Sequence record: OQ417976.1
Source: Mycobacterium phage prophiT46-1
DNA: 52,874 bases
Strand: one strand, 5' to 3'
Shown here one piece after another: positions 1,234 to 20,531 of this stretch. The notes under the pieces are model-generated. The model ran no database searches, was not told where the DNA came from, and was given only the letters and a program-made list of their open reading frames with translations. The translations under genes and the position numbers were made by a program. Each line of letters begins with the position of its first letter. Positions within the stretch are counted from its first letter, which is position 1.

Positions 1234-2112
1234 TCACTCGAATAATCCCGGCTCCGTGGGGCGGTCGGTCAGCGCCAGCAGCCGGTATGCCCATCGGCCA
1301 GGCTTACCGGTATTTCGGACTAGTCGCACTCTCTCGATCTGTGCTTGGACCGGCTTGTCGACGTGTCGAATGACAGCGTCGGAAAGCTCTGGGTCGTATA
1401 CGCCTTCGTAGTCGCGGCCCTGTGCTTCGAGATAGAAAATCCTCCGACGGGTCCGCATTCCATCGAGTCGGCCTTCGACAGGAATTACGTCGCGCTCGTA
1501 TTTGCCATCGAGCAGGTCCGTGTTGATGGTCGCCGCCTGATCGCGCGTCATCACCCCGCCCGTGAGGGCTCCCGAGGAGGTGCTGACCGTGAGATCTACG
1601 GCAGCGGCAGCCTGCACCGCTTCAACTACATCTTTGACAACATTGAGCAGCGCTCGATCGTGAGCTGCAAGTGGCGCCACCGCCTCCGGGTCTGCCGATT
1701 CGGGGAGTATATTGACAAGCTCGATTGCCGCCCGTTCTGCTGGTGTCTCCGTGTGTGAGACGAACAACTGAGGGTTGGCGATGTCCAGGTTTTCAAACCC
1801 GAACTCGATGCGCCTGCCTATCTGGCGACGCGGGTAGAGACGTGCTCGGTCTTTGTCAGACTCTTGGACGATGTTTGCTTGCGAGAGTGGATCATGTAAA
1901 TGCTTTCCCATCCGTGCGACCGCATTCTGCATGTGGCGCGCGACAGCAGACAGCACATCGGCGTCGATATCACGATTAACGTCGACCGCCAAGAATGCAG
2001 GTTTGCGGCGACTGCCGAACTTGGTATCAGCTGCGGTCAGTGAAGCTCGGGCGAGTTTGTCGAGCCATGAGTCACCGTCGATCTGTGCCTGAGCTTCCTC
2101 AAATCTGCTCAT
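1234..2112 (-). CDS. Hypothetical protein; distal gene of the leftward lysogeny operon (unknown function)
   Basis: 292-aa ORF. Its start overlaps the stop of the upstream gene by 4 nt (ATGA coupling). It is convergent with int. No recognisable motif was found. Confidence 0.6.
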   Translation of the reverse strand: MSRFEEAQAQIDGDSWLDKLARASLTAADTKFGSRRKPAFLAVDVNRDIDADVLSAVARHMQNAVARMGKHLHDPLSQANIVQESDKDRARLYPRRQIGRRIEFGFENLDIANPQLFVSHTETPAERAAIELVNILPESADPEAVAPLAAHDRALLNVVKDVVEAVQAAAAVDLTVSTSSGALTGGVMTRDQAATINTDLLDGKYERDVIPVEGRLDGMRTRRRIFYLEAQGRDYEGVYDPELSDAVIRHVDKPVQAQIERVRLVRNTGKPGRWAYRLLALTDRPTEPGLFE

Positions 2113-2621
2113 AGCGCCACCTCGATATATCCCTTGACTGCGCCTTCAATTATCTCACCGTCATCGCCCTTTACCGCGGACCAGGTGTCGTGCCAAACAT
2201 CGTCTTGTCCGGGGTAACACAGGAAGGCGTCAAGCTCTCCAGCAAGCGGTTGTATGCGTTCGAAGCCAAGGTACAGCGGCTCACCGACAACTACATCTTG
2301 AAGCGTGAGCATCCCAAAGACACGGTCCCTCTCGCGTCCGGTGTAGGAGCGCAGATGGTCCCAGCTACCCGGCTTGATCACGACATCAACATCGAATGGG
2401 GCATGAGCCTTCGCCGTGACGAACCCTCCGTCAACCCACAGTTGGCATGGACCGATGATCCGTTTAGCCAGCTCAGTGAACGTGATGAGTGACCCAAATA
2501 GCTCTTGCCTGCGGGCGGTGTTGGGTGCTCCGATGACGCATCGGTCGTGGACGTCATCCATGGTGCCAGTGTGACGTCCGGGTGGAAGTAGCCCCTGGCT
2601 AGTCCACTCGGGCAGGCTCAC
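2109..2621 (-). CDS. Hypothetical protein with Pol-beta-type nucleotidyltransferase-like motifs (ELFGS ... DVDVVI); middle gene of the leftward operon
   Basis: 170-aa ORF, coupled at both ends by 4-nt ATGA overlaps. It contains an hFGS motif followed by DhDh (FDVDVVI), but the spacing is longer than in minimal nucleotidyltransferases, so the fold assignment is tentative. Confidence 0.6.
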   Translation of the reverse strand: MSLPEWTSQGLLPPGRHTGTMDDVHDRCVIGAPNTARRQELFGSLITFTELAKRIIGPCQLWVDGGFVTAKAHAPFDVDVVIKPGSWDHLRSYTGRERDRVFGMLTLQDVVVGEPLYLGFERIQPLAGELDAFLCYPGQDDVWHDTWSAVKGDDGEIIEGAVKGYIEVAL

Positions 2622-3778
2622 CGATGTTGCCTCTCGCCCCGCTTGGCGGTCTTTCGTTGGTGGATATCGGGGCCGGATTGCGCTAACCGACTGATCGGAT
2701 CGCCTGATGCGCCCTCGGACACCTCATCCCCCTCCCTACCCTTTGCCGGACTACTTTGCCCGATTTCCGTACTACTGTCTCGGTTTTCGGTCTCGACGGG
2801 GTCACGGGCGTGTCCAAGATTGGACTCGGCAGCTCGCTGGGCGCCTCGGAACAACCCGCCGCTACCTATCGCGGGGTCAGCATCCTGGTCTTCGTTAGCT
2901 TGCGGCGATGAAGGGCGCCTCAAATCCTCGATCGACGTAACGTCTCTGCCGACGGTCGGCCCCAGCATCCACTTCGAAGGCTCCAACCCGAGGCGTTCGG
3001 CTGCGGCGACTCCATCTGGTTCCCACCACCAATGCGCCCGCCACGGCTCGTCCTCTTCATCAAACTCGGCGCCGGGATCCCAGGGGGGCGTCCAGGGGCG
3101 CCCGTAGGTGACATCGTTAGTCATCTGTTGAACGGCGTCGAGTTCGGATTGTGCTTTAGCGAAGGGGATCGCCCGTGCACGCGCATACCCGAGCACTAGG
3201 TTCAGCATGCGGTTGCGTGCTTGCACCCACTCGGCGAAAACAGCTTCGGCTGATAGAAACTCGCCGTCTGGCCCAACGCCGAGATTTGGGTCCGGGCGTC
3301 TACGAATCTCCCGAGGCGGTAGTGGCGGATCGCCCTCTTGAGCGGGCAATCCCGCTGCCTGCCGCAGACGTGCAGCAGTACGCCGAGCAGATTCTTTCTG
3401 CTGAATGAGATCCTGAAGTTCCTCGACTGCGTCCTCGCGGCCTACATCGCGCAGCTCATCCGCAGTGGCACCGACCACTAGAGCCATTCGAGCCAGGGTT
3501 ACGGCGGGAGCGCGCACAGGGACGCGAAGATCCGCCGTTTCTTGCCTGTACCCCTTGATGATCTGACGCCAGCGAGAGTCGGACATATCCGCAGCCCTTG
3601 CTGCACTGCGTACCGACAGCTTTGGCCGGAACTGGGTACGCAGACGTTCTATCAACTCCGCTTCAGGTGGCTGCGTTGGTTCGCTCACCTGCACAGTGTC
3701 ACGCCTAACGGGGTGCGAAGTCCATCGGGCGCACCTTTCGTGGACTTTCGCAATTACACGCTTGTGATATTCGAACAC
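2618..3778 (-). CDS. HTH-containing protein, candidate immunity repressor/regulator with a long acidic Trp-rich C-terminal region
   Basis: 386 aa. It is transcribed divergently from the early lytic operon. Helix-turn-helix-like segments are LSVRSAARAADMSDSRWRQIIKGY and VTLARMALVVGATADEL. The C-terminus contains EEDEPWRAHWWWEPDG. It is the first gene of the coupled three-gene operon. Confidence 0.6.
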   Translation of the reverse strand: MFEYHKRVIAKVHERCARWTSHPVRRDTVQVSEPTQPPEAELIERLRTQFRPKLSVRSAARAADMSDSRWRQIIKGYRQETADLRVPVRAPAVTLARMALVVGATADELRDVGREDAVEELQDLIQQKESARRTAARLRQAAGLPAQEGDPPLPPREIRRRPDPNLGVGPDGEFLSAEAVFAEWVQARNRMLNLVLGYARARAIPFAKAQSELDAVQQMTNDVTYGRPWTPPWDPGAEFDEEDEPWRAHWWWEPDGVAAAERLGLEPSKWMLGPTVGRDVTSIEDLRRPSSPQANEDQDADPAIGSGGLFRGAQRAAESNLGHARDPVETENRDSSTEIGQSSPAKGREGDEVSEGASGDPISRLAQSGPDIHQRKTAKRGERQHR

Positions 3779-3820
3779 GCCTGATCGCGATACGTTTCCG
3801 CGTCAATCCGAAGACGTGTG

Positions 3821-3858
3821 TTGACGTACGCAGATGTGCGCACTATCTTTATGCGTAC
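3821..3858 (+). promoter_or_regulatory. Putative early rightward promoter with operator-like palindromes
   Basis: A -35-like TTGACG (3821..3826) and a -10-like TATCTT (3844..3849) are separated by a 17-nt spacer. The spacer holds the perfect 8-bp palindrome GTGCGCAC (3836..3843), nested inside the inverted repeats GTACGCA (3826..3832) and TGCGTAC (3852..3858). The element lies in the 114-bp divergent intergenic region. Confidence 0.4.
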
Positions 3859-10505: not shown

Positions 10506-10762
10506 GGTGCGCGAAGTTCGTCGGCGACCGCACCGACGAGTTCACCATCGGCCAGCAGTTCGGCGAAACCCTCGAAGGCCGTCCGGTCCGGGTCGTATCC
10601 GTCACATACGACCCGGACACGGACCGAACCATGGTCGAAGGCGAACCACTGGCACCAGATGCGCCAGAAGGGTTGCGGCTGCGCTACTTCGGTGGCCGCG
10701 ACCCCAACATCGAACCCCCTGACAGTGTCCAACCCCTCACCGACGAGGTAACCCCACAATGA
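10502..10762 (+). CDS. Hypothetical protein
   Basis: The GTG start overlaps the upstream stop (GTGA). 86 aa. Confidence 0.45.
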   Translation: MRCAKFVGDRTDEFTIGQQFGETLEGRPVRVVSVTYDPDTDRTMVEGEPLAPDAPEGLRLRYFGGRDPNIEPPDSVQPLTDEVTPQ

Positions 10763-11343
10763 CCGAAACACCAGACCTGACCTTGCGCCAGTGGTTCGGC
10801 AAGCTCATCCGAGGCCAGCACCACCTAGCGATCGGCGGCGAAGACGACCCCTACCTGCTGCGCTGGTACCTGATCCCACGCAACAAACGGCTGAACATCT
10901 ACCTGCACCAATTCATCCGATCCGACGACGACCGCGCCCTACACGACCACCCATGGTGGTTCTGGTCATTCGTCCTGGCCGGCCACTACTACGAACACCG
11001 CGCAGACGGCCGACGCATCAAACGGCACTGGGCGTCCATCGCCTACCGGGCAGCGAAAACCCGGCACCGCGTGGAGCTACCCAAGTCCAACGACCCGATG
11101 TCGCTGCTGGAACGCGAAGACTGCTGCTGGACCATCGTCGTCACCGGACCCCGAACCCGCGACTGGGGATTCTGGTGCCCCGGAGGCCGATTCATCATCA
11201 CCGAGCAGGGCGAAACCAGCACCCTCGACGTCGACCGGTTCATCCCGCACACCGCTTGGGGCGCCGCCGGATGCGGCGAACCATTCACCGGCACATTCCA
11301 CGCTCGCACACCAATCTGGAAGCGGGTGCCCGCCCGTGATTGA
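10759..11343 (+). CDS. Hypothetical protein with His-rich HQF..D...HDHPW motif (possible cupin/metal-binding fold)
   Basis: 194-aa ORF with ATGA coupling. The motif assignment is speculative. Confidence 0.5.
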   Translation: MTETPDLTLRQWFGKLIRGQHHLAIGGEDDPYLLRWYLIPRNKRLNIYLHQFIRSDDDRALHDHPWWFWSFVLAGHYYEHRADGRRIKRHWASIAYRAAKTRHRVELPKSNDPMSLLEREDCCWTIVVTGPRTRDWGFWCPGGRFIITEQGETSTLDVDRFIPHTAWGAAGCGEPFTGTFHARTPIWKRVPARD

Positions 11344-11359
11344 CCAGGCGTTGACGGCG

Positions 11360-12061
11360 TCAGCCCCCACTCTCCGTGATCATGGCGGCTATCGTCGGGC
11401 TCAACTCAAGGGCAGCCTTGGTTACGTCCTTCCAAGTGAAGAGTTCTTTGAGCCTCGCCCACATTCCCTTGTGATCTTCGTCGGTTGCTTCATACGCAGT
11501 ATCTATCGAGGTCTTGAGAAGGGTTGCAGCCCTGAACAAGTCGTAATCGCCGCGCATGTTGAGTCGATATTCCTCGATGACCAGCTTCATGTGGATGATC
11601 AAGCCAAGCATGTATTTCTTGACGTTCAGCTCGATGCTGGAGTCGTCCTTCAAAGCGGTGAGTACTTCATCGAGTGCTTTTTCGAAAGCGTCTGCTGCAT
11701 CAGTGGGGAGTTTGCGGACGAGCGGATCAAGCTGATGTCCCAGCGTGCTCAGCATCTGCATCGACGGAGAGTCGAAGTAGTAGATGTTTCGCCACCCGTC
11801 CGGATACGACAACACCATCCTTCCCCAGGCCGGGAGATACCCCCGATAGAGCTCGATGACATCGCTGGGCATGAGTTCAAGTTTTTCAGCTTCGTCCAGA
11901 AGCTCACCTACGGCGCGCAAGTTGGAGAGGGCGGCCTCGTGCCGGCGTATCGCCATCGTGAGGTCTTTGTTAAGAGCCCGGCGCTGCTCTGCGTTCTGTT
12001 GACTTCCTGCCAGGTCCCACGCCTTGAGCTGCCGATAAAGAAGTTCCGCAGGGTTTGCCAT
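11360..12061 (-). CDS. Reverse-oriented low-GC gene of unknown function (candidate defence/abortive-infection gene) embedded in the early operon
   Basis: 233 aa from MANPAELLY. The coding sequence has clearly lower G+C than its flanks, about 50% by eye against about 65%. The translated protein has a balanced K/E/L-rich composition. The antisense + ORF (11336..12118) is Cys/Arg-rich junk. The gene lies on the opposite strand to all its neighbours. Confidence 0.55.
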   Translation of the reverse strand: MANPAELLYRQLKAWDLAGSQQNAEQRRALNKDLTMAIRRHEAALSNLRAVGELLDEAEKLELMPSDVIELYRGYLPAWGRMVLSYPDGWRNIYYFDSPSMQMLSTLGHQLDPLVRKLPTDAADAFEKALDEVLTALKDDSSIELNVKKYMLGLIIHMKLVIEEYRLNMRGDYDLFRAATLLKTSIDTAYEATDEDHKGMWARLKELFTWKDVTKAALELSPTIAAMITESGG

Positions 12062-12114
12062 TGCCGAATCGTAAGGCAGCGGTACTGCGGCTTGGAGCGA
12101 AATAGAGCAGGCGC

Positions 12115-12324
12115 ATGACGGCGTTGCCGGTCGCGCGGTACGACCAAACCCGCGCACCCGCCCTCGGTAAGCAGCCGCGCCCGTGGTTCACGTTCCAATG
12201 CCAGCGCTGCGGCAAGGACTTCCGTGCCCGGTTCATCGCCCGCGAATGCCGCGACTGCTGGGCCGAAACCGCAGCCATCTACCCAACACTCTGGCCCGGC
12301 ACCGGCGAGGCCAGCGGCTCATGA
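12115..12324 (+). CDS. Small zinc-ribbon protein (CQRCG...CRDC)
   Basis: 69 aa. Its stop overlaps the ATG of the downstream PAPS-reductase-like gene (ATGA). Confidence 0.45.
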   Translation: MTALPVARYDQTRAPALGKQPRPWFTFQCQRCGKDFRARFIARECRDCWAETAAIYPTLWPGTGEASGS

Positions 12325-13442
12325 AAGGCACACCCGCGATTCGCATCTTGTCCCTCGGCGCTGGTGTCCAGTCGACGGTGTTGGCACTCATGGCCTGCGA
12401 CGGCACGCTGCCTGGTCTGGATGCTGCGGTGTTCGCCGATACCGGCTGGGAACCGCCCGCGGTCTATGAGCAGGTGGACCGGCTCGCCGCCGAGCTTGCC
12501 CGGGTGGATATCCCGTTGTACCGGGTTTCGTCGGGGAACCTGCGGGCCGACACCCTCGACCCGGAAGCGCGATTCGTTTCGGTGCCATGGTTCACCTTGG
12601 CGCCCAAGGCTACCGAGGTGCCTGTTTATGGCGTATGCGCACCCTGCGGCGGCTCCGGCCGTGGACCATCTGACGAGCCTGATTCATGTTCGGTGTGCGG
12701 TGGCGACGGCCGTGGGTCGATCGTGGGCACCAGGCTAGCCACTGCCACTGAACGGCACGGCATGGGCCGTCGCCAGTGCACCAGCGAGTACAAGCTCAAG
12801 CCGATCAAGGTCAAGGTGCGCGAGCTGCTGGGCTACCCGCATCCGACACCGGTACCGCGTGATGTGTTCGCCGAGCAGTGGATCGGATTCTCCACGGACG
12901 AGATTCACCGGGTGCGTGACCGGCTGGACGTGAACTATTCCCGGCCGCGTTACCCGCTGTTGGATCTGGGCATGTCCCGCAAGGACTGCCAGCGCTGGCT
13001 GGAGCGCGCAGGGTGGGGCCACACCGCCAAGAGCGCCTGCATTGGGTGCCCGTTCCACGGCAACGCCCAGTGGCGCGCGCTGCGCGACACATGCGAGTGC
13101 GGACACCATCGCGACGCACACAACGTCGACGGTTGGTGCGAATACCGGCTACCGCCGGACGCGGACTACTCCGACGTACATCGTTGCGAGTGCCCACGGT
13201 TCCGAGCACCGCAGTGGGCCGACGCCGTCGACTTCGATCGGCGCATTCGCAAGGGTGGCGCTTCGGCGAGTCCGCTAGACGGTGAGGCATTCCTGCACCG
13301 CTCACGAGTTCCGTTGGACCTGGCGCCAATCGACCGCGTGACACGTGCCGAGTACGCCGACATGCAGCTCGACCTATTTGAGGACGGTGACCCGGACGGC
13401 TGCTCGCCCTACGGCTGCCGCAGCGGGGAGGTAGTCGCATGA
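12321..13442 (+). CDS. Phosphoadenosine phosphosulfate (PAPS) reductase-family protein (PP-loop ATP pyrophosphatase fold) with Cys-rich insertions
   Basis: 373 aa from the ATG at 12321. The PP-loop-like ILSLGAGVQSTVLALMA and the family-typical GCPFHGNAQWRALRD are present. Extra CxxC clusters are CAPCGG...CSVCGG and CECGHH...CECP. Confidence 0.7.
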   Translation: MKGTPAIRILSLGAGVQSTVLALMACDGTLPGLDAAVFADTGWEPPAVYEQVDRLAAELARVDIPLYRVSSGNLRADTLDPEARFVSVPWFTLAPKATEVPVYGVCAPCGGSGRGPSDEPDSCSVCGGDGRGSIVGTRLATATERHGMGRRQCTSEYKLKPIKVKVRELLGYPHPTPVPRDVFAEQWIGFSTDEIHRVRDRLDVNYSRPRYPLLDLGMSRKDCQRWLERAGWGHTAKSACIGCPFHGNAQWRALRDTCECGHHRDAHNVDGWCEYRLPPDADYSDVHRCECPRFRAPQWADAVDFDRRIRKGGASASPLDGEAFLHRSRVPLDLAPIDRVTRAEYADMQLDLFEDGDPDGCSPYGCRSGEVVA

Positions 13443-19344: not shown

Positions 19345-20133
19345 ATGACCACCATCGAGGAGAACGTCGCCGCCGCGCAACACGAAGTCGAACGCCGCAA
19401 GGCCGACTATGAACATGCGCGTGACCTGTACCGGCGCGCTGTCACGGTCCGCGACGACCTAGACGCCGTCGCCCGCGCACACAAAGCCACCAAGAACATC
19501 TATGACGCCGTCCAAACCCTCACCGAACAGCCCGCGCCCGAACCGTCACCGACACTGGACAGCGACCCGCGCACACCCGCCGACCAGGCACACGAATTCT
19601 TCACCCGGCCAGGCGACTTCTACCACGTAGCCCTGGCTCTGCCAGCGCCCACGAACGGCGCAAAACTCGGCGCCGGCTTCATCGTGAAAGCCGACGACAC
19701 GCAACTCCCGTACCTGCTGGAAGTGCTACGCCAACTACGCGGCGCACTCGGCGACGACACCCGCGTCGAATTGAGCAAAGCGGAGATCGGGCTGCCCGTT
19801 GGACCACCCACCGTCGGCACGATGCCTCGCTACACCGAGGTATTCGCGCCACCCGAGCCGTCAATCTCGGAACAGATCACCGAAATAGCGGAACAGCAAG
19901 GCGTGAAACCGGAACAAGTACAGGCAATTCCGGTACGCGGAGGCGGACACGCGTTCACCATCAAGCCCGAACCCCAACCCGAGCAGGGCAGGCACGCACG
20001 ACCCGACGACTGGGAGAGTAGCCCCAAACCGCAACACCTTGCCGCAGACGACGACTACGACGACGAAGGATGCTGCGCTGGTTGCGGAGTGCCACACACC
20101 AACGGCACGCATTCCCCAGACTGCGAAGCATAG
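19345..20133 (+). CDS. Hypothetical protein
   Basis: The RBS AAAGGAG precedes the ATG at 19345. 262 aa. Confidence 0.55.
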   Translation: MTTIEENVAAAQHEVERRKADYEHARDLYRRAVTVRDDLDAVARAHKATKNIYDAVQTLTEQPAPEPSPTLDSDPRTPADQAHEFFTRPGDFYHVALALPAPTNGAKLGAGFIVKADDTQLPYLLEVLRQLRGALGDDTRVELSKAEIGLPVGPPTVGTMPRYTEVFAPPEPSISEQITEIAEQQGVKPEQVQAIPVRGGGHAFTIKPEPQPEQGRHARPDDWESSPKPQHLAADDDYDDEGCCAGCGVPHTNGTHSPDCEA

Positions 20134-20144
20134 GTCGGCCGCTC

Positions 20145-20531
20145 ATGCCGAACCGCACCCCCAGAACAACCACGCAGAAACGGCTAGGCCACGACCACCA
20201 ACAACAACGCGACCGGCTACTCGCGCGCCACGTCGACGGCCAACCCTGCTGGTGGTGCGGAAAACCCATGTACCGCGACCGCACCCGCAACTGGGACCAC
20301 AACCCCAAAGCCACACGCCGCGACGGAAAGCCCGACACCAGCAGCGGCAGCCTCGCCGCCGACCACAGCACAGCCCGCGCCCAATCCACCACCAGCCGCG
20401 CAGACCGACTCTTGCACGGCACCTGCAACAAACAACGCCAAGGAGGCCACCGTGACGACCAACGACCAGCCCTCACCAACCCACCCGACACAGACCCCGC
20501 ACTCGGAACCCGAATCTTCAACTGGCCCTGA
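20145..20531 (+). CDS. HNH endonuclease
   Basis: CWWCGKPM ... NWDHNP ... H ... C motif pattern. It sits in the usual position upstream of the terminase genes. Confidence 0.65.
   Translation: MPNRTPRTTTQKRLGHDHQQQRDRLLARHVDGQPCWWCGKPMYRDRTRNWDHNPKATRRDGKPDTSSGSLAADHSTARAQSTTSRADRLLHGTCNKQRQGGHRDDQRPALTNPPDTDPALGTRIFNWP

Follow-up and report, generated by a model that had tools for sequence, protein, structure and literature searches.

A counter-oriented gene with a putative leaderless-type promoter in the early region of a Mycobacterium abscessus prophage is a probable moron of an uncharacterized protein family

The stretch of DNA analyzed here, 52,874 nucleotides (nt) of Mycobacterium phage prophiT46-1 (sequence record OQ417976.1; the whole stretch is referred to as the window), carries on its minus strand, at 11360..12061, an open reading frame (ORF) with an ATG start that encodes a soluble, acidic, all-alpha protein of 233 residues and that is the target gene of this work. 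The target is probably a moron, namely a self-contained exchanged gene with a short promoter, forming an autonomous transcription unit that lies backwards in an early lytic operon. The kind of feature (moron or prophage accessory gene) is known, and its protein family is uncharacterized. The initial annotation of this DNA had already proposed a moron, and that proposal is strengthened by three observations: the gene and ~55 nt upstream of it are the exact exchanged unit, a leaderless -10 element is conserved, and the relatives are either counter-oriented or placed in immunity or junction cassettes.

An alternative form of the target ORF, started by GTG, extends to 12157. The ATG at 12061 is considered the true start because the N-terminal motif M-x-N-P-A-x-L-L is kept from residue 1 across the 86 relatives of the family alignment, with which the target peptide (MANPAELLY...W) aligns from its first residue. 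Judged from sequence comparison, the target is a real gene under purifying selection, with a ratio of nonsynonymous to synonymous substitution (dN/dS) of 0.16-0.24 against four orthologues of 50-71% protein identity. An overlapping plus-strand ORF of 260 residues (11336..12118) was ruled out as a real gene, since family conservation, the N-terminal motif and dN/dS all fit the minus-strand frame. A profile search of 1.84 billion representatives returned 270 related to the target at E <= 1e-3 and 107 at E <= 1e-10, relatives being almost all single-domain proteins of 220-235 residues. Also, a protein identical to the target is annotated as "hypothetical protein" in M. abscessus (at least 139 contigs, 203 index blocks). 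The neighbors of the target are all on the plus strand, according to the prophi58-1 annotation and public gene calls, and the only other minus-strand call in the early region, in public calls for identical prophages, is a 74-residue ORF at 20217-20441. This call is overlapped by a forward ORF of 153 residues (20070-20531) with an HNH-like motif (CWWCG...DHN...H), its own translation resembles antisense, and it is probably a mis-call. The target is the only credible reverse gene within the ~18-kb rightward early region, as had been claimed for it from the start.

The first 25 kb of the window share 95.7% identity over 87% with prophi58-1, an M. abscessus prophage of cluster MabG, and the gene order fits that of prophiGD21-3 (MW584178), in which gene 20 is cysteine-dioxygenase-like and gene 23 is PAPS-reductase-like (PMC8092301). 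The window is most probably a cluster MabG prophage of M. abscessus matching prophiGD21-3. In the latter, most genes point rightward, genes 5-43 are early lytic, and gene 21, which in this numbering is the target, is annotated as hypothetical and goes unmentioned in the study (PMC8092301).

A comparison with prophi58-1 reveals a mosaic segment (11335..12106) that is missing from this relative, with blastn similarity stopping at 11334 and restarting at 12107. At the same slot, prophi58-1 carries a hypothetical gene (gp24) and two DNA methyltransferase genes, all of them forward. The minimal exchanged module is shorter on one side (11357..12119), running from the stop codon of the target to the start codon of its neighbor, and it is the only stretch in common with an unrelated prophage contig, L010 (homologous loci are given here by L numbers). 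In this contig the module has 75% nucleotide identity to 11357..12119 by blastn, and the encoded protein is 71% identical to the target. Junction alignments place the ends of the exchanged unit at the same two points, the target stop codon and the start codon of the divergent neighbor. Between the start of the target and that of forward gene 22 there is a divergent intergenic region of 53 nt (12062..12114) that holds the promoter, and the part of it up to ~12106-12119 travels with the target; ~55 nt 5' of the target are conserved in L010 and L012 despite different neighboring genes. On the other side, a spacer of only 16 nt (11344..11359) separates the convergent stop codons of gene 20, which is forward, and the target. 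Moreover, the target is kept in the same slot in L008, a MabG variant whose immunity arm differs. The gene is present here and gone at the same position in a close relative, with sharp boundaries, as a moron should be. Its horizontal exchange is concluded because of these mosaic junctions and not from its G+C content.

As a separate observation, the slot looks like a hot-spot of DNA-modification-type genes. Its flanks are occupied by cysteine-dioxygenase-like (10759-11343) and DndC/PAPS-reductase-like (12115-13442) genes, and in the equivalent region of prophi58-1 (L011, 12601-16761) two DNA methyltransferases and an "RNA methyltransferase" replace the reverse gene and the PAPS reductase.

In mycobacterial leaderless transcripts, a TANNNT -10 element lies at positions -12 to -7 relative to a transcription start that coincides with the start codon. 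The outward-facing promoter that the initial annotation had suggested looking for in 12062..12114 would correspond to such an element, as a candidate -10 hexamer, TACGAT, is read there on the minus strand (12068..12073), with its end 6 nt upstream of the ATG. No Shine-Dalgarno sequence is found upstream of this ATG. Across the family, 12 of 15 independent homologous lineages have TANNNT 6-7 nt 5' of the start codon (loci L010, L012, L005, L004, L016, L018, L019, L022/25, L023, L024, L026, L029 and L030), the starts having been placed by the conserved N-terminal motif, independently of the promoter. At L021 the distance is 8 nt, and the two clear exceptions, the Gordonia phage Vasanti and L013, have Shine-Dalgarno sequences instead. 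TANNNT has a background frequency in these loci of 0.0015 per position and is missing at that spacing from each of 18 forward genes in the window, and the binomial probability of the spacing is ~2e-14, as computed with 6 of 8 lineages scored. On this evidence the target appears to carry its own promoter of leaderless type, as expected of a moron, a candidate -10 element being the only recognizable part of it.

Just 5' of the hexamer lies an imperfect palindrome, CAGCGGTACTGCGG (12077..12090), with 10 of 14 positions symmetric, showing partial conservation in L010 and weaker conservation in L012. It could possibly be an operator, an assignment made with low confidence. A repressor operator common to the target and the immunity region was ruled out, since there is no copy of the palindrome in the immunity intergenic region (3600-3830). 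In addition, the motif M-[A/G/S]-N-P-A-x-L-L is conserved from the first residue alongside the leaderless layout, over the first 8 codons and family-wide, and a common constraint may act on the mRNA 5' end and the protein N-terminus, through leaderless translation initiation or N-terminal recognition, for instance.

In the mechanism proposed here, host RNA polymerase would start at the start codon of the target and produce a leaderless mRNA. The target would probably be transcribed in the lysogen, given its own promoter and its orientation against a repressed early operon, and convergent early transcription would likely damp it during lytic growth. Toxin-antitoxin genes of M. abscessus prophages that lie on the opposite strand within early lytic genes are strongly transcribed in lysogens (PMC8092301). 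However, several observations weigh against considering the target as a moron with its own transcription unit. RNA-seq of strain GD21 (data in GEO as GSE161710) shows that another of its prophages, prophiGD21-1, expresses only its repressor, most prophage genes being silent (PMC8092301). A generic two-hexamer sigma-70 scan finds no promoter at the target, and no -35 element is evident. Also, the terminator scan gives nothing on the minus strand downstream of the target, where only the 16 nt to the convergent neighbor are available, and the downstream RNA fold is no more stable than shuffled sequences (z = 0.10). The classical moron layout of promoter, gene and terminator is incomplete because no terminator was found.

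The base composition of the target differs from that of the surrounding genome, as in morons. Its G+C content is 55.1%, compared with 63.7% for the window and 64.6% for the flanks of +/-4 kb, and the lowest 300-nt value within it is 50.0%, at 11400-11699. As few as 1.3% of all 702-nt windows have a G+C content as low as the target, which is ~3 standard deviations under the mean, and the sign of the AT skew reverses over the gene. Then, the dip reported by the initial annotation is real and the composition is not uniform, the contrast being of ~9 points and not the ~15 that its estimate of ~50% against ~65% would imply. By codon position, the G+C fractions of the target (GC1/GC2/GC3) are 0.59/0.38/0.68, whereas the GC3 of the neighboring lytic genes is 0.74-0.86; in this respect the target resembles the leftward lysogeny cassette genes beside the integrase (GC3 ~0.62) and not the lytic genes. 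The dip is in part a matter of amino acid composition (GC2) and in part of synonymous sites. Moreover, every examined homologue is 1-8 G+C points under its own flanks, so the low G+C content is a standing property of the family, derived partly from amino acid composition, and as a proof of recent transfer it was ruled out, the deficit being common to all homologues examined. Of the earlier argument that low G+C implies recent horizontal acquisition, the exchange itself is retained, as the mosaic junctions show it, and the inference from composition is not, given that the deficit is family-wide.

The genomic contexts of the homologues are also informative. Counter-oriented homologues in lytic operons are found in at least six independent prophage lineages. 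For example, the homologue of L010 is counter-oriented between RusA/RecT and WhiB genes, that of L005 is counter-oriented in a lytic block and adjoins Dam, that of L016/17 is counter-oriented in a lytic block, and that of L030/31 is counter-oriented just 5' of a terminase block. In a Corynebacterium prophage (L026-28) the homologue lies counter-oriented between antirepressor and excise/YqaJ/SSB genes, being co-oriented with the block of repressor, M78 peptidase and integrase. In Vasanti, the homologue gp40, labeled "peptidase", directly follows the immunity repressor and lies upstream of the integrase, with which it is co-oriented. This protein is a true homologue of the target (23.6% identity over 99% of the length, tblastn E = 6e-10) and shares the near-invariant W79, P87, G89, W90, L104 and L107 together with the N-terminal NPA motif. 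Vasanti genes 41-38 (L003, 4363-6398) encode the repressor, gp40, the weakly M78/ImmA-like gp39 (E = 0.027), a DUF3263 protein and the integrase, an order reminiscent of ImmR-ImmA-Int cassettes, into which the homologue would have been inserted.

Other homologues belong to small integrative or phage-like elements. Those of L019/20 and L018 are both accompanied by a resolvase, together with a D5-type primase in the former and Prim-Pol in the latter; that of L004 is found with capsid genes and a serine recombinase, and that of L021 with an AAA_25 primase-helicase. A low-G+C element with terminase, portal and capsid genes ends with the homologue in L024, where host rplM and glmM follow immediately. 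This island (L024, 1-6666), of 56-61% G+C compared with 66-72% downstream, is a small element of phage-like or satellite-like type whose junction carries the homologue, L004 being similar. Also, the homologue of L013-15 is near a pair of DNA methylase and ResIII helicase genes and a resolvase. At L013 (1676-7956), a 734-residue N6/N4 DNA methylase and an 852-residue ResIII helicase are followed by a 199-residue ORF, the homologue and then the resolvase; the 199-residue ORF has hydrophobic stretches as judged by eye, and the locus constitutes a restriction-like or defense-island setting.

No neighboring gene is conserved across the more than 15 contexts of homologues. A conserved upstream partner was ruled out, as the upstream ORFs of ~200 residues in L003, L013, L018 and L019 are mutually unrelated, and so was a toxin-antitoxin module, as the exchanged unit is one ORF with unrelated upstream neighbors. 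Homologues come from Mycobacteroides, Corynebacterium, a Gordonia phage and uncultured Actinomycetota, most relatives being in environmental Actinomycetota metagenomes. No homologue was found in the plasmid collection, and Vasanti gave the only one in the phage collection (50,697 records). Scans of genome, viral and metagenome sequences for homologues yielded 0, 1, 2, 1 and 2 loci, the family-wide alignment being too divergent for locus scanning.

Regarding the protein, the composition of the target (L 15%, A 11%, D and E 7.7% each, K and R 6% each) is rich in L, A, D and E; the description as helical and K/E/L-rich in the initial annotation stands for the helices and fails for lysine. The protein has an isoelectric point (pI) of 5.1, a net charge of ~-8 and no cysteine. 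It shows neither a transmembrane segment nor a signal peptide (maximal 19-residue hydropathy of 0.91), which rules out a membrane protein or a membrane superinfection-exclusion protein. The AlphaFold2 model, obtained with the 86-sequence alignment, is all-helical (pLDDT 91.4, pTM 0.84), with ~10 helices and a disordered C-terminal stretch of 25 residues; its C-terminal half seems to form an up-down four-helix bundle. Family-wide conserved residues are N3, P4, A5, L8, W15, R28, A44, W79, W90, L104, L107 and L182, the first five of which (N3, P4, A5, L8 and W15) are conserved at 94% or more in the 86-sequence alignment, and D140, G171, A178 and W201 are conserved at 83-87%. Conserved residues are mostly Trp, Leu and Ala, in addition to N3, R28 and D140, and there is no catalytic constellation among the family-wide conserved positions. 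The target is regarded as probably non-enzymatic because of this lack of a catalytic pattern, and it is most likely a binding, sensing or scaffolding protein that would act by binding another macromolecule.

Searches of Pfam, PHROGs, NCBIfam and PADLOC with the target and 87 family members gave no consistent family, and the absence of any Pfam or PHROGs domain agrees with the first description of the protein as having none recognizable. Sequence-profile matches in the Protein Data Bank are at chance level (E >= 0.017), and Foldseek, which that description had named as a check, returned from viral models one uncharacterized match with a TM-score of 0.48. A peptidase, as suggested by the label of Vasanti gp40, was ruled out, since neither gp40 nor the 87 members belong to a Pfam peptidase family and no catalytic constellation is conserved. 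Also, a HEPN ribonuclease was ruled out because there is no family-wide Arg/His pair; the R-x4-H string occurs in one sub-clade only and is E...N in the target.

As to function, the foremost of the candidates, though less likely than not, is a single-gene, prophage-expressed defense or exclusion determinant against heterotypic phages, in which case the protein would sense or sequester a phage or host protein. Several results weigh against this assignment. PADLOC-DB v2 (5027 models) has no match for the target, and among the 87 family members it gives three different single-member matches with E-values of 0.001-0.004, which is chance level. Structure searches return generic helical bundles only. 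The target is proximal neither to att nor to the repressor, where known mycobacteriophage defense genes typically sit, and the methyltransferases in the slot of the sister phage would fit an anti-restriction role equally well. A more far-reaching proposal is that the target founds an undescribed single-gene immunity or conflict family of Actinomycetota mobile elements, with an orphan all-alpha fold and, nearly always, a leaderless unit with its own promoter that opposes lytic transcription, on in the lysogen and turned off by convergent lytic transcription, protecting lysogens, clinical M. abscessus among them, against unrelated phages through the sensing or sequestration of a phage protein; this proposal is doubtful.

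An anti-defense or anti-restriction protein, made from a constitutive host-recognized promoter both on DNA entry and in the lysogen and binding a host immune system, would be an unlikely alternative. The two DNA methyltransferases at the slot of the sister prophage suggest self-protection, the target lies between DNA-modification-type genes (cysteine-dioxygenase-like and DndC/PAPS-reductase-like), its protein is acidic, small, soluble and non-enzymatic in look, the family occurs in many kinds of mobile elements including small integrative ones, and a leaderless constitutive promoter would permit immediate expression. Nonetheless, the net charge is far from that of typical DNA mimics, counter-orientation and the placement in the repressor operon of Vasanti suit expression in the prophage state better than an entry function, and the methylase/helicase restriction-like pair adjoining one relative is an unexpected place for an anti-restriction gene. 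The Vasanti locus would recall a regulator or sensor of the life cycle of the element itself, modulating for example repressor stability or induction, because the homologue is flanked there by the immunity repressor and a weakly M78/ImmA-like protein and lies 5' of the integrase, recalling ImmR-ImmA-Int. The Corynebacterium prophage homologue, co-oriented with repressor, M78 peptidase and integrase, and conserved residues that suggest a binding protein point in the same direction. However, close MabG relatives lack the target, it is exchanged on its own between phages of different immunity systems (L008 and L010), and across the more than 15 contexts it has no conserved partner and a very variable position relative to the immunity region, leaving a regulatory role improbable.

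About as improbable is lysogenic conversion, in which the target would alter the physiology or virulence of the host (stress tolerance, intracellular growth or antibiotic response) with no part in phage conflict. In favor of this reading, many clinical M. abscessus assemblies contain the identical protein, a cassette for a secreted polymorphic toxin with an implied part in virulence lies in the same prophage, and an own promoter with low G+C is typical of conversion genes; on the other hand, the predominance of environmental metagenomes among the relatives, together with a soil Gordonia phage, is not pathogen-specific, and a protein with no signal peptide or transmembrane segment has no evident secreted or envelope role. 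Finally, there is only a very small probability that the target is the orphan toxin or antitoxin from a pair of toxin-antitoxin or abortive-infection type that has degenerated, such as a HEPN-like RNase with a nucleotidyltransferase in trans. Opposite-strand toxin-antitoxin pairs are documented in early regions of M. abscessus prophages (PMC8092301), the apparent four-helix bundle of the C-terminal half is of the kind found in HEPN domains, one sub-clade has the R-x4-H string, and a DUF6932 nucleotidyltransferase gene lies at 2109-2621, next to the repressor.

Two other regions of the window deserve mention. Leftward after the integrase (1234-3643, minus strand) lie the repressor, the DUF6932 nucleotidyltransferase (2109-2621) and a hypothetical protein of 292 residues (1234-2112), all with a low GC3 (~0.62), as is also low in the target; together with the gene downstream of it, the nucleotidyltransferase could form an MNT-type toxin-antitoxin or defense pair co-transcribed with the repressor. 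The lowest G+C content of the window is at 49000-51100, with 51.4% in the 702-nt window from 49851 and 54.6% at 49701-50400, a region that includes a forward ORF of 184 residues (49493-50047, GC3 0.61) and the start of a minus-strand ORF of 607 residues (50450-52273). The corresponding region of prophiGD21-3, near attR, is a cassette of polymorphic toxin, immunity and WXG-100 genes (PMC8092301).

The significance of the target depends on its role. M. abscessus is treated with phages on a compassionate-use basis, and prophage functions are suspected to shape the success of therapeutic phages for each isolate. If the target is a defense gene, it would be a diagnostic marker for the choice of phages and represent a new defense family of Actinomycetota; if it is silent or has no phenotype, it would be one more hypothetical gene of an already published prophage. 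Moreover, the family exemplifies a rule, a single gene with its own leaderless promoter that is counter-oriented in lytic operons, and this rule could serve to mine prophage-expressed cargo genes in high-G+C bacteria.

The morons of temperate phages were defined as a concept for the lambdoid phages HK97 and HK022. Like classic morons, the target is extra in one phage and gone from the slot of its relative, is bounded by gene junctions, has its own promoter and a deviant composition, and is placed for transcription while the neighboring lytic genes are repressed. Unlike them, it has no detected terminator, its promoter consists of a -10 element only, of the leaderless mycobacterial type, and its expression in the prophage state is inferred. 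Also, it lies inside the early operon, whereas many classic morons are found in the late or tail region. A closer parallel is given by the opposite-strand toxin-antitoxin modules of M. abscessus prophages, which share the host species, the position within early lytic genes and the opposite strand (PMC8092301). However, these modules have two genes of recognizable families (PMC8092301), and the target stands alone, without a partner gene or a recognizable family.

Heterotypic defense genes of actinobacteriophages are known from cluster N phages, Sbash gp30/31, Butters gp30/31 and Gordonia phage CarolAnn gp44 (PMC9934374, PMC7542560). The target resembles them in being variable and accessory in a temperate actinobacteriophage and in having no evident lytic function. 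In contrast to them, it is far from the immunity and attachment regions and has no membrane partner. The Vasanti homologue differs from the target in that it is preceded by a Shine-Dalgarno sequence and begins 2 nt downstream of the repressor gene, being operonic and not autonomous. Its position, nonetheless, is the repressor-integrase interval, where heterotypic defense genes typically lie.

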